A stretch of 62,894 nucleotides of DNA from Bacteroidota bacterium. GTDB taxonomy: Bacteria; Bacteroidota; Ignavibacteria; Kapaibacteriales; NICIL-2. Positions 51,242 through 55,502 of the stretch are shown one piece after another; the stretch's first letter is position 1; every line of letters begins with the position of its first letter. The stretch is taken from positions 1 through 62,894 of the forward strand of contig JBJOLU010000227.1 of the NCBI GenBank assembly GCA_046052705.1. Reading direction: 5' to 3'. The notes below the pieces were generated by a model that was not told the DNA's origin, did not search any database, and worked only from the letters and a program-made list of their open reading frames with translations. A program made the translations under genes and the position numbers.

Positions 51242-51345
51242 ACAGACTCTCCAAGTTCATGCCCCGTGGCATGTGTTGTAATGAGTAGCATGCTAACAGG
51301 TAGGAACACAGTAACAATAGTGCACTGTGGCACTCAGTACTTCCC

Positions 51346-51475
51346 CCAACACGGCTGGCGACTGGCTATCTGGCTCACCGCATCCGAAGAATACCTCTAG
51401 CGCCAGGACTTCGGACTATTGATGGGCTTACCAAGATTTCGCGCTATCTTAGAGTCCAATCGCCATGCGTGTTGG
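51346..51475 (-). ncRNA. Structured RNA candidate, copy U1 (130 nt, Y-shaped, 5 helices); family not recognised
   Basis: CCAACACG...CGTGTTGG closing stem; helices covary with copy U2; wobble pairs are G.U only on minus strand. Confidence 0.6.
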
Positions 51476-51476
51476 T

Positions 51477-51588
51477 TGTTGATGACGGGATTCAAACCCG
51501 CAACCGTCCCCTGCCGAGGCCGCTCTATCTTTCGTCTGCCGACTAGCTGGTTTCAATATATGCCAGCTTTCAGTTGAGCTACACCAAC
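51477..51588 (-). ncRNA. tRNA-like element / degenerate tRNA (112 nt)
   Basis: Acceptor GTTGGTG/CATCAAC (one G.U), U8, T-arm GCGGG-TTTGAAT-CCCGT. Between them there are ~45 extra nt, a 6-bp stem AGCTGG/CCAGCT with a 12-nt loop, and no canonical anticodon loop. The T-loop has U where C56 is expected. Confidence 0.45.
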
Positions 51589-51706
51589 ACGGCTGAGTAC
51601 TGGCTATCTGGTCAGTTTCATTCGAAGTTTCCTAGGACTGTCGGAATTATTAACTGGCTTACCAAGGGTTCGCGCCCCCTCGGACTCCAATACTCATGCG
51701 TGTTGG
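51584..51706 (-). ncRNA. Structured RNA candidate, copy U2 (123 nt), paralogue of U1
   Basis: Same architecture as U1 with compensatory substitutions; its 3' strand overlaps the tRNA-like acceptor stem by 5 nt. Confidence 0.6.
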
Positions 51707-51943
51707 ATGTTGGCGAAATAGGACTTTCTTAACGCGCCATGACAGCGCCCCGCCCCGTAACGCCAACAAGGAAGCAAGCCAGAAGCCACGAATTCTATCC
51801 CCTGTAGTTGAGGATACTCCTGACTTGCTTTCCTGTTAGCCCCCGTCTCTCCGGGGTGTCCGTTGTCATCTGTGGATCACACGCCTCGCCATGGTTCGAG
51901 TCCGACAACATGACATATTGTAGTACGTTAACCCACAAGTCTA

Positions 51944-52366: not shown

Positions 52367-52800
52367 ATTCAGTCTCGTCAGGATCACGTGGCATGCGGGA
52401 TAGGAAACGCATAGGAACTCTGGGCAAAACCTTCCCAAGGGCAGCCTACGAAGGCAACCCTCGGGATGTATCCAATGGCTCATGCTAGATTAGGTATCCG
52501 CTGAGTCACCCCATCGCTCAACCCCGGCCTAACCCGTGTTGAGTCGCAGTCTTTTGCCTATCAGGAGGCTCACACCGAGCACTGCGCCACTCGATACTTT
52601 GAGTGCATCCCGCTCTTGCTGGTCTGGTGCGATTGTTCCAGCTTTAAGCTACTGCCCACCGTTTCCATACGTCCGTCCTAAGGTACTACCCTTTCGCCGC
52701 CGCCATGACGCTTTACGGTTACTCAGTTCCTACCCGAGGTATCGGGACTTAAGTGACTCTTAAACAGAAGCCGAGTTGAAGCGAGCCAGAAAAGCAAAAA

Positions 52801-52932
52801 CCCCAGAGTGCTTAAGTGGGGCATGGCCCTGGCATGGGCAACCAACAATGCGATAGGAACAACGCACCACTGATTACACATGCCCCACTTGAACATTCTG
52901 GGGTAAGTTATTGTTCCTATAGACATTGTTGG
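52801..52932 (+). repeat. Two interleaved long inverted repeats (A/A' ~25 bp, B/B' ~21 bp): pseudoknot or mutually exclusive hairpins
   Basis: A 52801-52825 CCCCAGAGTGCTTAAGTGGGGCATG vs A' 52879-52903 CATGCCCCACTTGAACATTCTGGGG; B 52842-52862 CCAACAATGCGATAGGAACAA vs B' 52911-52932 TTGTTCCTATAGACATTGTTGG; order is A-B-A'-B'. Confidence 0.6.
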
Positions 52933-52972: not shown

Positions 52973-53002
52973 TTACGTCAAGAGGGTGACGTAACTTTTT
53001 TT
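52973..53002 (+). terminator. Terminator-like hairpin + T7 on the plus strand
   Basis: TTACGTCA-agaggg-TGACGTAA-C-TTTTTTT; no plus-strand CDS upstream. Confidence 0.45.
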
Positions 53003-53005
53003 ACT

Positions 53006-53045
53006 TCTATGAGTCTCTATGGGAGTTCTATAAGGTTCTATGAGG
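53006..53045. repeat. Four iteron-like direct repeats TCTATRRG phased 10-11 bp
   Basis: CTAT at 53007, 53017, 53028, 53038 (TTCTATGAG, CTCTATGGG, TTCTATAAG, TTCTATGAG); adjacent to T7 tract; between convergent hairpins. Confidence 0.6.
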
Positions 53046-53064
53046 TTTCTGCTAGAACTTCAGA

Positions 53065-53086
53065 CCGCCCACCCGGAGATGGGCGG
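53065..53086 (-). terminator. GC-rich hairpin just 3' of the Cys-rich peptide ORF (weak U-tract)
   Basis: CCGCCCA-cccggaga-TGGGCGG, 8 nt after the stop. Confidence 0.4.
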
Positions 53087-53093
53087 GCGTTGC

Positions 53094-53249
53094 TTAGAAA
53101 CAGCGCGTGACGCACTGACCCTCTGGTGTGCAGCATATGGTACATGGCACCACACGATCTCCGACCATCATCGTGAAGTGAGTGCAGTTAGCCCATGCCG
53201 CCAGCGGGATGCCGACTAAGGCGAGGCCAACTAAGATTTTGCGTTTCAT
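53094..53249 (-). CDS. Secreted Cys-rich mini-peptide (51 aa precursor, ~31 aa mature, 6 Cys)
   Basis: AAAGGAAAATC-ATG; MKRKILVGLALVGIPLAAWA|NCTHFTMMVGDRVVPCTICCTPEGQCVTRCF; below ORF-track cut-off. Confidence 0.55.
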   Translation of the reverse strand: MKRKILVGLALVGIPLAAWANCTHFTMMVGDRVVPCTICCTPEGQCVTRCF

Positions 53250-53255
53250 GATTTT

Positions 53256-53328
53256 CCTTTCTCGGTTTCACTGGCAGATACCAGTGAGAGTAGGCACTGT
53301 GCATACTGACTGCGCATCCCGAGAAAGG
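53256..53328 (-). promoter_or_regulatory. Leader with 10-bp stem that sequesters the SD of the Cys-rich peptide gene
   Basis: CCTTTCTCGG (53319-53328 on minus) pairs perfectly with CCGAGAAAGG (53256-53265), which contains the SD; inner hairpin CACTGG-n6-CCAGTG 53269-53286. Confidence 0.45.
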
Positions 53329-53353
53329 ATTGGCGCACAATGCCCACTCTGAC

Positions 53354-53428
53354 TGGTGCTCCCTCTAGGAATCGAACCCAGATAAGCTGATTACAAATCA
53401 GCCGTAATAACCGTTATACGAAGGGAGC
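53354..53428 (-). tRNA. tRNA-Thr (anticodon UGU), CCA encoded
   Basis: GCTCCCT acceptor / AGGGAGC, D-arm with A14 G18 G19 A21, anticodon arm GCTGA-TTTGTAA-TCAGC, T-arm CTGGG-TTCGATT-CCTAG, ACCA end; 75 nt. Confidence 0.9.
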
Positions 53429-53534
53429 GGATCAAGCTGGACAGCATTCCCCCAGGCACCGACGCCTGGGGGGACACCGCTCTCATGGAGGACGAGATAA
53501 CAACGAGCACAACCGAAAGGAAAGTTGCCTCTAA

Positions 53535-53563
53535 AAGATAGCTTGAGTCCCTGTATCGGTCAA
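53535..53563 (-). promoter_or_regulatory. Sigma70-like promoter for the tRNA unit (TTGACC-17-TATCTT)
   Basis: Read on minus strand directly after terminator 53568-53595. Confidence 0.45.
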
Positions 53564-53567
53564 GAGC

Positions 53568-53595
53568 AAAAAAAAGGCCCTCAACTAAGAGGGCC
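53568..53595 (-). terminator. Rho-independent terminator after the VRR-NUC-like gene
   Basis: Minus strand GGCCCTC-TTAGTT-GAGGGCC followed by TTTTTTTT. Confidence 0.8.
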
Positions 53596-53631: not shown

Positions 53632-53910
53632 TTACACCACGCCCTTCATAACTGCAAGGGCCGCCTGGATGCTATCTACTACATATGCCGGACCACCTGT
53701 CCACGTGTCGAAGAACTTCTGCTCGTTCTCTGTTAGCTTCCGCGCCGACGGTGGCTTGTTGCCATCTTTCACTTCAAACAACAGCGTTTTTCCCTCGTAA
53801 CCTACGATCAGATCACAGGGTTGATCGATGAAATACACCGTGGCGCCCGCGTCACGCAACGCTTTCACAATAGATGATTCGTTATCGTCCCGCCTCGCTG
53901 CTCTTCGCAT
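53632..53910 (-). CDS. VRR-NUC / PD-(D/E)xK small nuclease-like protein
   Basis: 92 aa; ESSIVKALRDAG ... CDLIVGYEGKTLLFEVKDG ... pattern. Confidence 0.5.
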   Translation of the reverse strand: MRRAARRDDNESSIVKALRDAGATVYFIDQPCDLIVGYEGKTLLFEVKDGNKPPSARKLTENEQKFFDTWTGGPAYVVDSIQAALAVMKGVV

Positions 53911-53942: not shown

Positions 53943-53971
53943 TTGCATGATGCTGACTGTTGCCTTACAGT
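53943..53971 (+). promoter_or_regulatory. Possible sigma70-like promoter of the rightward recombination operon (TTGCAT-17-TACAGT)
   Basis: Divergent intergenic region; same TACAGT -10 as candidate at 27928. Confidence 0.3.
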
Positions 53972-53989
53972 GACGTTTCAGGAGGACAC

Positions 53990-54913
53990 ATGAAACTCAC
54001 CAACCGACATAATTTGCCAGAGACAATTATCAATGTCTTGAGGCGCCCACAGTATAGCAAGGGTGGTGCTCACGTAAGTGCCACTGAATTATTATCTTCT
54101 CCGCGAATCGTGCAGCTTCGTCGCCAGCACTGGAATGATATTGAAGAAGATGCCAGTGAGATGGTGTGGAGTTTGTTTGGGTCTGCGCTGCATAACGTCC
54201 TTGAACACGGCAAGGATCGCAACCACGTTGTTGAAGAAAGATTGTTTGCTGAAGTGGATGGCTGGTCGTTGAGTGGGGCCGTTGATCTTCAAGAGTTCTT
54301 TGACGATGGCATCGTCATCAGTGATTACAAGGTAACCTCTGTTTGGTCGGTCATGAACGACAAGCTGGACTGGCATCGCCAGTTGAATGTCTATGCTTGG
54401 TTGATCGAGACAATCAAACATCGTCCGATCAAGTCTTTACAGATCGTGGCGATCCTCCGTGACTGGAATCGGCGCGACGCCGAACAGAAACAGGATTATC
54501 CTTCGGCCCCGATTGTTGTCGTTCCTATCCCTCTCTGGCCGATTGAGGCTCGTGAAGAGTACATCCGCAAGCGTATCCATCTCCACGCCGAAGCTATGTT
54601 CCAGTCGGAGGTGGGGGGCGATCTCCCAGAGTGTTCGAGCGAAGAGATGTGGGAGAAGCCGACCACTTTCGCCATCAAGAAGAAAGGCAACAAGCGTGCG
54701 AATTTTGTGTTTGTTGAAGAAGATAAAGCCAACGCCAAAGTTCAGGAGATGGGTGAGGCGTATGTTATTGAAAGGCGTCCAGGTGAGAGAACCCGTTGCG
54801 AGAAGTTCTGCACAGTCTCTCCGTGGTGTAACCAGTATCAACTCTACAAGGAATCAATGAATGTCAGTGCACAAGAAGCTGATGAAAGCGCGAGTGAAGC
54901 TACAGTCGCGTGA
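53990..54913 (+). CDS. Cas4/RecB-like PD-(D/E)xK exonuclease with Cys cluster
   Basis: AGGAGG SD; GAVDLQEF...VISDYKVT core; CSS ... C-x3-C-x5-C (CEKFCTVSPWC); upstream of Erf. Confidence 0.7.
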   Translation: MKLTNRHNLPETIINVLRRPQYSKGGAHVSATELLSSPRIVQLRRQHWNDIEEDASEMVWSLFGSALHNVLEHGKDRNHVVEERLFAEVDGWSLSGAVDLQEFFDDGIVISDYKVTSVWSVMNDKLDWHRQLNVYAWLIETIKHRPIKSLQIVAILRDWNRRDAEQKQDYPSAPIVVVPIPLWPIEAREEYIRKRIHLHAEAMFQSEVGGDLPECSSEEMWEKPTTFAIKKKGNKRANFVFVEEDKANAKVQEMGEAYVIERRPGERTRCEKFCTVSPWCNQYQLYKESMNVSAQEADESASEATVA

Positions 54914-55502
54914 CCTGAAGAAAAGCGGCCATAACAAGTTCAGCGGTTATCACTACTTTGAACTGGGTGACTTCCTTCCCCACATCCAGTCGATCTTTTA
55001 TGACCTTGGCTTGTGTGGTGTTGTCACTTTCGGACGCGACTATGCCGAACTTAGCATCGTCGATACGGAAGATGGCAGCTTGCTGAACATCACCTCTCCG
55101 ATGGCCGCTGCTGAACTGAAGGGCGCTCACCCAATCCAACAGCTTGGTGCTGTCCAGACTTACCAGCGCCGTTACCTGTGGATGACCGCCTTGGAAATCG
55201 TTGAGCACGATGCCATCGATGCAGGTGATAGCAAACCCGAAGTTCGGCCCGAGCCTAAGCCGGAACCTAAGTCCGACAAGCCCGCCTTCGGTTCACTCCA
55301 CATTCCGCCCAAGGTGTCTAACTGGGCACAGGCTGTGGTGGATGCAACCGGAGTGGCTCTTGATCTGTGCAAGACTCCCGATGATGTGATGAGCGTGTTC
55401 AAGGTCAATCGTCAGACCTACGACAAACTCAAAGCTGAAGATGCCGACACGTATGAGAACGTGATGGCCCTGTTCAAAACCATGAAAGAGAGTTTCAAGT
55501 GA
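54861..55502 (+). CDS. erf: ERF-family single-strand annealing protein
   Basis: KKSGHNKFSGYHYFELGDFLPHI ... GAVQTYQRRYLWMTALEI. Confidence 0.8.
   Translation: MSVHKKLMKARVKLQSRDLKKSGHNKFSGYHYFELGDFLPHIQSIFYDLGLCGVVTFGRDYAELSIVDTEDGSLLNITSPMAAAELKGAHPIQQLGAVQTYQRRYLWMTALEIVEHDAIDAGDSKPEVRPEPKPEPKSDKPAFGSLHIPPKVSNWAQAVVDATGVALDLCKTPDDVMSVFKVNRQTYDKLKAEDADTYENVMALFKTMKESFK

Follow-up and report, generated by a model that had tools for sequence, protein, structure and literature searches.

Results

A tRNA gene, a leader RNA and a six-cysteine peptide gene lie side by side in a phage genome

We analyzed a locus on the minus strand of contig JBJOLU010000227.1 (assembly GCA_046052705.1), where a gene for tRNA-Thr(UGU) (53354..53428) is followed by a 104-nt leader RNA (53353..53250) and a 51-codon open reading frame (ORF) for a peptide with six cysteines (53249..53094). 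The whole stretch of DNA, 62,894 nt long, is called the window here, and all coordinates refer to it; it is a phage genome of roughly 62.9 kb. Related loci that we compared carry L-numbers (L004, L156, and so on). What is new at this locus is an unnamed peptide family and a covarying leader that holds, in a hairpin loop, a sequence complementary to the Shine-Dalgarno (SD) region of the peptide gene (anti-SD).

One half of the phage genome (about 1-36,400) holds the genes for virion proteins, among them terminase, portal and major head protein. The locus itself lies at the point where the minus-strand early region and a plus-strand recombination operon, with PD-(D/E)XK nuclease and ERF genes, diverge. 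Reading along the minus strand, we find a gene for a 92-aa protein, a terminator, a promoter-like site, a hairpin, the tRNA-Thr gene, the leader, the peptide ORF, and a last hairpin. All features listed in a preliminary description of this DNA were found on the minus strand where it had placed them. The 92-aa gene (53632..53910, from the ORF list) had no match in Pfam; 73 related loci were found for it, and its homologues mark the same genomic slot in the relatives. We also found this phage in two further public samples, and L001 is identical across the locus region. Among the cultured phages of INPHARED, there was no near DNA match, only distant matches to the tRNA.

The peptide belongs to a large unannotated phage family

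The ORF encodes a signal peptide in codons 1-20 (MKRKILVGLALVGIPLAAWA, 53190..53249), with a Lys/Arg n-region, a hydrophobic core and an A-W-A motif, and a mature part of 31 aa with the six cysteines (NCTHFTMMVGDRVVPCTICCTPEGQCVTRCF, 53097..53189), supported by alignments A1, A4 and A10 and by an AlphaFold2 model. Searched as a single sequence against 5.8 billion proteins and against IMG/VR, the peptide matched only itself. Performing tblastn against the loci of the related phages, we found homologues of 49-50 aa directly 3′ of the PD-(D/E)XK gene, and profiles then widened the family. The first alignment, of ten homologues, showed M1, K4, A20, T23, T37, G44, T48 and all six cysteines to be invariant. 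Profile searches returned first 38 and later at least 424 clusters at 90% identity; at 50% identity, there were 190 representatives (E <= 0.001). The peptide is therefore a member of a large, unannotated phage family, and the earlier remark that no family was known for this sequence no longer holds.

The family profile scores the window peptide at 84 bits (E = 1.7e-18). Behind the signal peptide, the family has the spacing C-x13-14-C-x2-CC-x4-6-C-x3-C at a total length of 48-51 aa, which the window peptide follows, and C22, C36, C39, C40, C46 and C50 are invariant. The family consensus reads signal peptide - AxA - x-C-T-T-H-T-Y-x-x-N-G-R-x-V-T-C-T-T-C-C-Y-G-G-N-C-T-T-N-C-F. Of this consensus, the window peptide retains CT, the CTxCC block and the T of CxTxC, and it departs at many positions (THF, GDR, VPC, CTICC, TPEGQ and VTRC); it is a divergent member with 29-60% identity to the others. 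One subfamily has eight cysteines, and the two additional ones always occur as a pair, one on each arm of the first hairpin, as expected for an added disulfide.

We checked the relatives for stop codons and frameshifts and found that the ORF is conserved and that synonymous changes dominate. The peptide genes of L156 and L165 differ by nine synonymous changes and one non-synonymous change, those of L156 and L215 by eight and three, respectively, and the differences between the window and L156 fall on the three codon positions as 13/8/24. The signal peptide is likewise conserved in L156, L215 and L165, where its codons carry many synonymous changes. Judged by this pattern of substitution, the 51-codon ORF is a real gene.

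In their source records, the family members are all a "hypothetical protein" or unnamed. Neither the peptide nor the family matched any family in Pfam, NCBIfam, PHROGs or the PDB sequences, and literature searches returned no description of the family. INPHARED lacks the family except for two uncultured "Manatee Spring" records (E = 0.08). Scanning 185,579 species genomes with profile A9, we found one family locus, L224 (3058-3147 of contig DAITMV010000016.1, from a Burkholderiaceae metagenome-assembled genome (MAG)). This member sits between an HNH-type gene and terminase genes on a phage-looking contig, which hints weakly that part of the family has Burkholderiaceae hosts. The family is essentially phage-only, and almost all of these phages are uncultured.

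The peptide genes of other phages lie in tightly packed early small-gene arrays upstream of the DNA polymerase A gene (PolA), opposite a DnaB/RusA module, or in a recombination operon after the PD-(D/E)XK nuclease gene, and no partner gene is constant across these contexts. Many relatives have the peptide gene immediately 3′ of the nuclease gene. It stands elsewhere in the window, and we therefore conclude that the gene changed place and strand in this lineage.

The peptide is predicted to be exported and to form a small disulfide-rich sheet

The window signal reads MKRK-ILVGLALVGIPLA-AWA followed by N, which by its pattern is a Sec signal with a signal peptidase I site. A K/R n-region, a hydrophobic core and an AxA motif were present in all family members that we read. 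The signal peptide and the six-cysteine mature part of 31 aa, both pointed out earlier, were thus confirmed as an architecture that the family conserves. Across the family, S, G, N, A, D, T, E, Y or V stands before the first cysteine, and in some members the cysteine is preceded by two residues; such variation does not fit a lipobox. The window peptide, with A-W-A-N-C, does not match the lipobox pattern [LVI][ASTVI][GAS]C, and the Pfam model LPAM_1 gave only E = 0.61, in one family member. The number of cysteines is even throughout, either six or eight.

Modeling the full-length peptide with AlphaFold2 gave predicted local distance difference test (pLDDT) values of 78-87 for the core. The mature part alone was modeled at a pLDDT of 93.9 as a three-stranded antiparallel β-sheet (strands 2-9, 12-20 and 26-30), in which the six cysteines most likely form three disulfides. 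Foldseek searches of PDB and of BFVD, a library of predicted structures of viral proteins, gave no significant fold match apart from family members, one of which, a 49-aa entry of BFVD, carries the automatic name "Lipoprotein".

We also considered known classes of small cysteine-rich peptides. Apart from signal-peptide noise, the peptide had no NCBIfam or Pfam match (E <= 1), whether to SCIFF (six-cysteine peptide precursor family), to ranthipeptide or other precursors of ribosomally synthesized and post-translationally modified peptides (RiPPs), or to heat-stable enterotoxin-type peptides, and neither a radical-SAM gene nor another maturase gene is a neighbor. These classes were rejected, and so was membership in a known toxin family.

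The leader RNA is conserved and folds into two covarying hairpins

Minimum free energy (MFE) folds and covariation define two hairpins in the leader. P1 (53281..53356; core 53350..53335 with 53302..53287) is a 21-bp hairpin whose base starts at the CCA of the tRNA. Its closing extension pairs CCAGU (53356..53352), which includes this CCA, with ACUGG (53285..53281). P2 (53269..53286) is a 6-bp hairpin, CACUGG/CCAGUG. The ACUGG stretch has two possible partners, the 5′ CCAGU that forms the base of P1 and the 3′ CCAGU within P2, and both pairings covary.

L156 was found through its protein (59% identity) and has the same order of 92-aa gene, tRNA-Thr(UGU), leader and peptide gene. Its leader is 73% identical overall to that of the window, with the anti-SD and SD 10-mers intact. 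A scan with the pattern of these two arms added four L156-type loci and a third lineage, L197. The MFE folds of the window, L156 and L197 types agree on P1 plus P2 with a single-stranded SD (z = -3.0 to -4.2). Taking the CCA away from the leader costs only the 5-bp extension of P1, and the rest still folds as P1 plus P2.

We built a covariance model (CM), R1, on the P1/P2 fold and used an alignment fitted by this model. R1 matches the leader in four lineages, including L004 (35.5 bits, E about 7e-7). In P1 with its extension, 95% of cells were paired and 8 of the 21 pairs had changed on both sides, and none of 500 shuffles scored as high. P2 was 100% paired with changes on both sides in three of six pairs, values that no shuffle reached. 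Slid controls for P1 and P2 gave 25-47% paired. In summary, compensatory changes in four lineages identify the leader as a conserved, structured and functional RNA with P1 plus P2 as its supported fold. Searching the leader against Rfam 15 gave no match at E <= 1, and only the tRNA passed. The L004 element has no SD and no ORF after it and runs into another structured element (CAACACGCAUG...CGUGUUG). The occurrence of P1 and P2 there indicates a modular RNA element, and not a dedicated riboregulator.

The loop of P1 carries a perfect complement of the ribosome-binding site region

The 10-mer CCUUUCUCGG (CCTTTCTCGG as DNA; 53319..53328) lies in the apical loop of P1. The SD arm CCGAGAAAGG (53256..53265) holds the ribosome-binding site (RBS) AAGGA, 5 nt before the ATG, and is unpaired in the MFE fold. 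These arms are a perfect 10/10 complement with a duplex energy of -15.7 kcal/mol. Shuffling the leader, we obtained a perfect 10-mer complement to the pre-start region in 157 of 200,000 cases (about 8e-4). The complementarity seen in the preliminary description is therefore non-random, and it occurs in all three peptide-bearing lineages. Neither 10-mer varies among the window, the L156 group and L197, and both are missing from L004, which has no peptide gene; this conservation is not independent for L197 and four L156-type loci, because the search pattern required both 10-mers. That pattern, CCTTTCTCGG-N40-70-CCGAGAAAGG, was scanned in IMG/VR, with 0 matches, and in metagenomes, where five of 57 matches were true leader homologues and the rest were chance palindromes.

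We then compared the energies of the alternative pairings. A nested stem between anti-SD and SD lies 6.0 (window), 7.3 (L156) and 9.8 kcal/mol (L197) above the MFE, and the ensemble probability of its pairs is about 0. The SD-sequestering stem that had been proposed is thus not the predicted fold, and the covarying P1 and P2 leave the SD free. As the arms never vary, covariation says nothing for or against the pairing of anti-SD and SD. From its place in the P1 loop, the anti-SD could have an effect only through a pseudoknot of marginal stability or once the RNA has been processed. Adding the opening cost, the duplex energy and a pseudoknot penalty of 9.6 kcal/mol, we obtained a rough and marginal estimate of -0.6 to -5 kcal/mol for such a pseudoknot.

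The tRNA-Thr(UGU) is canonical and its link to the peptide gene is facultative

The tRNA gene was called by ARAGORN and by Rfam RF00005 (60.2 bits, where the gathering score is 29). The gene ends in GCACCA, so that the CCA is encoded. The acceptor reads GCTCCCT...AGGGAGC-A-CCA with G1-C72, C2-G71 and discriminator A73, and the anticodon at position 34 is TGT. G1-C72 and C2-G71 are the identity pairs of E. coli ThrRS. By these features, the tRNA is canonical, as described before, and looks functional.

The locus L197 has the leader and the peptide without a tRNA (the 92-aa gene and terminator are followed by the leader), and most members of the peptide family have neither tRNA nor leader. The link between tRNA and peptide is facultative on these grounds. 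In the same slot, 300-1000 nt after the homologue of the 92-aa gene, L009, L011, L013 and L024 carry other tRNA sets (Pro+His, Pro+Tyr, Met+Pro+Asn and Met). We therefore read the slot as a general site for swappable tRNA/RNA cargo.

The tRNA had been suggested to supply ACA codons. Over all kept ORFs of the phage, Thr codons are 26% ACA, 30% ACG, 25% ACC and 18% ACT; in the long ORFs of the genome bin that holds the contig, the figures are 23%, 23%, 39% and 15%. ACA plus ACG amounts to 56% in the phage compared with 47% in the bin, and the ACA share of Thr codons is 28% in the structural half of the phage genome compared with 18.5% in the early half. Both comparisons mildly favor the suggestion, and the counts fit modestly with ACA supply for the late genes. 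The peptide genes use all four Thr codons, which argues that they have no special codon link to the tRNA.

The bin has its own tRNA-Thr(UGU) gene (C212:3491-3564), whose 17-nt anticodon arm is identical to that of the phage tRNA. Most of the 35 other tRNA genes of the bin lack the encoded CCA that the phage tRNA has.

Terminator, promoter-like site and flanking hairpins

An intrinsic terminator follows the 92-aa gene (53568..53595) with a G+C hairpin and T8. Its stem (53595..53576) has seven pairs, six of them G-C, and a hairpin with T7 is found at the equivalent position in L215, L197 and L004. The terminator of the preliminary description is well borne out. The promoter placed next to it fared less well. 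The σ70-like site TTGACC-17-TATCTT (53535..53563) is present and has 9/12 matches, but it is at chance level (one site found, 2.1 +/- 1.4 in shuffles), and there is no σ70-like site between the terminator and the tRNA or leader in L215 and L197.

A strong G+C hairpin (CCCCCAGGC...GCCUGGGGG, 53441..53480) stands 12 nt upstream of the tRNA. The segment 53500..53429 folds at -33.2 kcal/mol (z = -3.35), and L156 and L197 have hairpins of unlike sequence at this position. We consider this hairpin a candidate processing or stability element.

Another G+C hairpin (53066..53089) begins 5 nt past the stop codon of the peptide ORF (53089..53066, -20.6 kcal/mol, z = -3.0), and L156 and L197 again have hairpins of other sequence here. 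This hairpin was not in the list of the terminator scan, and UCUGAAGUU follows it in place of a U-tract. A canonical terminator after the ORF was rejected for this reason. The ORF does end at a GC hairpin, as had been said, but not at one that passes the test for an intrinsic terminator. The parts of the "mini-operon" are likewise all present, but its boundaries are unproven, given a weak promoter that the relatives do not share and a 3′ hairpin that lacks the form of a canonical terminator. Just past the 3′ hairpin, four CATAGA(A/G) repeats with 10-11 nt spacing lie at 53010-53052. They adjoin an A7/T7 tract and a plus-strand terminator-like hairpin (52973-52994).

Other structured RNAs and neighboring genes

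More structured RNAs lie on the minus strand beyond the peptide gene. The region 51280-51940 has two tandem units of about 130 nt, each starting with CCAACACGCAUG and ending with CAGCCGUGUUGG, and these ends are complementary. The units flank a tRNA-like piece that has both a D-arm and a T-arm, ends in ...ACCA and was called by neither ARAGORN nor Rfam. In L156, the same motif and a truncated tRNA-like element stand 3′ of the peptide gene, and L197 has three copies of a hairpin with the CAACACGCAUGAGGA motif behind it. Positions 51760-51870 form a second long, imperfect P1-like hairpin (CUAACAGGAAAGCAAGUCAGGAG ... CUUCUGGCUUGCUUCCUUGUUGG), whose loop has GGGGAUAGAAUUC in common with the L004 element; CM R1 did not detect this hairpin. 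A non-coding region at 52680-52845 is 85-90% identical to the distant relatives L026, L006, L008, L137, L100, L052, L007 and L004. It is more conserved than the neighboring proteins and strongly self-complementary. On the plus strand (53960-55502), the PD-(D/E)XK and ERF genes of the window phage overlap directly.

The contig and its bin

The contig is the largest one in a 2.15-Mb, 94%-complete MAG bin of a diderm bacterium, and its GC content equals that of the bin (0.518). The 4-mer correlation between contig and bin is 0.77, compared with 0.92 within the bin, and we found no DNA shared between the phage contig and the rest of the bin. Because of the lower correlation and the lack of shared DNA, the link that would make the bin the phage host is weak, and most tRNA genes of the bin differ from the phage tRNA in having no encoded CCA.

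Discussion

We read the locus as a three-part module that heads an ORF-poor RNA island of about 2.2 kb in the phage genome. Our explanation, which taken as a whole we hold to be slightly more probable than its opposite, is as follows. The tRNA and the peptide mRNA would be made as one precursor and split by cleavage in or near P1; we propose cleavage in P1 because a 21-bp stem that starts at the CCA has the size of an RNase III substrate. P1 would be a processing or structural element common to the other RNA cassettes of this phage, and the loop anti-SD a lineage-specific addition to it. In the default fold, the ribosome site would be open. The anti-SD could damp translation only through the marginal pseudoknot, and processing of P1 would remove this effect, as the cleavage that separates tRNA from mRNA would also detach the anti-SD. 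The tRNA would serve the ACA/ACG-rich late genes and would be a separate cargo of the same slot, not the partner of the peptide. The peptide would be exported early to the periplasm of a diderm host and bind a conserved envelope component there, with a role in superinfection exclusion or host take-over. The whole core is strongly conserved across unrelated phages, which argues for a conserved target. Our best guess is that the peptide is an effector that acts on the envelope early in infection, and superinfection exclusion or host take-over would be its likeliest roles.

Different accounts can be given of the leader. It may be simply one unit of the structured-RNA cassettes of this phage, serving for processing or punctuation or as a stable RNA in its own right, behind which the peptide gene landed, with constitutive translation of the peptide and no regulatory role for the anti-SD. 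The L004 version, with P1 and P2, without SD and ORF, and directly followed by the next structured element, agrees with this account, as do the P1-like long hairpins and similar closing stems that recur at 51940..51280 of the window and the many family members that have no leader at all. What such an account leaves unexplained is why the P1 loop holds a perfect 10-nt complement of the ribosome site in exactly those versions that stand before a peptide gene, and in no others, and we consider it possible but doubtful. Conversely, the leader may be a true riboregulator, in which the nested stem CCUUUCUCGG:CCGAGAAAGG hides the RBS until tRNA 3′ processing or melting of the leader switches translation on. 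The perfect 10-bp complement, with its energy and low chance frequency, would then have a direct purpose, and it would be no accident that the arms are invariant between the window and L156 while the leaders have diverged, or that they are missing from the peptide-less L004 element. However, the forced stem costs 6.0-9.8 kcal/mol in the three lineages with pair probabilities near 0, and the competing P1 is a covarying helix that forms first during transcription. Loss of the CCA, moreover, would leave P1 and P2 in place without the 5-bp extension, and the unvarying arms offer no covariation either way. A riboregulator of this kind is unlikely in our view. A bolder combination is that the six-cysteine peptides are widespread, unrecognized periplasmic phage effectors and that the RNA cassette was co-opted as a processing-dependent translation gate. 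The loop anti-SD of an intact P1 would form the pseudoknot with the SD, the cleavage that releases the tRNA would free peptide translation, and the effectors would bind a conserved envelope component, for example blocking the entry of competing phages. We regard both halves being true together as quite unlikely.

The site of action of the peptide could also be different. The peptide might act outside the cell after lysis, as a bacteriocin-like toxin, a signaling peptide or a RiPP-type product crosslinked through Cys and Thr. A small disulfide-stapled β-sheet as modeled would probably be very stable, the core is rich in Thr and Cys, and Foldseek gave a weak match to the defensin-like bacteriocin laterosporulin (rank 50, E = 2.2). 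Yet no maturase, immunity or receptor gene is a constant neighbor, neither SCIFF nor another NCBIfam or Pfam peptide family matched, a Sec signal with an AxA site is unlike a RiPP leader, and the core is conserved across unrelated phages where a hypervariable one might be looked for; we think action outside the cell improbable. Still less probable is a lipoprotein whose first cysteine is lipidated after signal peptidase II cleavage and which is anchored in the membrane like the Llp/Cor-type exclusion lipoproteins. The automatic name of the BFVD member points that way, and some members end their signal in ...VWASC or ...ALAC, which permissive lipobox patterns accept. Against this, the window peptide has W-A-N-C, the residue at -1 is as variable across the family as listed above, and lipidating one cysteine out of six or eight would leave an odd number. 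The envelope-acting, exported and disulfide-bonded peptide is the reading we retain.

Several points weigh against our preferred explanation. The covariation of P1 and P2 comes from only four independent lineages and from an alignment fitted by the CM, and L197 together with four of the five L156-group loci (not L156 itself) was found by the pattern of both 10-mers. In the comparison with L215 and L197, no promoter is conserved at the locus. The tRNA-Thr(UGU) genes of the window and L156 are only 62% identical, and both precede the same peptide gene; two such unlike tRNAs hint at a link between anticodon and locus. The peptide has no fold or sequence match to any characterized protein, and our search of the 94%-complete bin, whose link to the phage as host is weak, turned up no DsbA-family gene.

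Exported phage accessory proteins that act on the envelope are well known, among them Sp and Imm of T4, the lipoproteins Llp of T5 and Cor of phi80 and N15, and the products of "moron"-type units. The peptide gene resembles these in being a small gene with a cleavable signal peptide that lies in early or accessory regions and stands alone in many unrelated phages, and like a moron it is flanked by a terminator and a hairpin. It has no sequence or fold similarity to known proteins of this kind, is not a lipoprotein by its -1 residues, and is predicted to be a 30-aa sheet with three disulfides, much smaller than Sp, Llp or Cor. Peptides of the laterosporulin and knottin type share with the model about 30 residues, six cysteines and a three-stranded antiparallel sheet. 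The likeness to known or designed mini-proteins ends there. The best PDB E-values were 0.07-0.2 (a designed protein), laterosporulin3 gave E = 2.2 at a TM score of 0.40, and the window spacing C-x13-C-x2-CC-x5-C-x3-C matches no Pfam or NCBIfam model.

Transcription units that join tRNAs and mRNAs include the thrU-tyrU-glyT-thrT-tufB operon of E. coli and the tRNA cluster of phage T4 with its stable RNAs. Here too, a tRNA, also for Thr with anticodon UGU, immediately precedes a protein gene of the same strand, no terminator separates the two, and as in T4 other structured RNAs surround them. The present unit, whose co-transcription is putative, differs in that a conserved 21-bp hairpin beginning at the CCA and bearing an anti-SD forms the spacer, and in that L197 dispenses with the tRNA. 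RNase III processing of phage leaders alters translation in the λ N and cIII leaders and acts on the hairpins of T7 early mRNA. P1 is similarly an imperfect hairpin of about 21 bp just upstream of the RBS in a phage early transcript, and in its predicted fold cleavage would detach the anti-SD loop. Cis-regulators that sequester the SD include RNA thermometers and the pseudoknot riboswitches SAM-II and preQ1-II. The leader shares with them a conserved sequence complementary to the RBS, and pairing of the loop with the SD as a pseudoknot is topologically possible. It differs in having no Rfam match, in a pairing that lies outside the predicted ensemble, and in showing no evident ligand pocket or temperature-labile design. 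By analogy, the unit may best be described as a moron-like exported early accessory gene behind a tRNA, with an RNase III-type leader hairpin, and it falls in none of the named families we tested.

The leader ties this locus to undescribed structured-RNA cassettes of the same phage group. Since its long covarying hairpin abuts the CCA and presents an anti-SD in the loop, a coupling between tRNA processing and translation of the downstream gene becomes directly testable. Few viral genes are as poorly annotated as those for small exported phage proteins, and this family of hundreds of clusters has had no name in Pfam, NCBIfam, PHROGs or its source records. The confidently predicted, tiny disulfide-stapled fold makes synthesis and direct testing of the peptide feasible. 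If the peptide acts on the envelope, it would give phages a new and compact means of excluding one another or of taking over the host.

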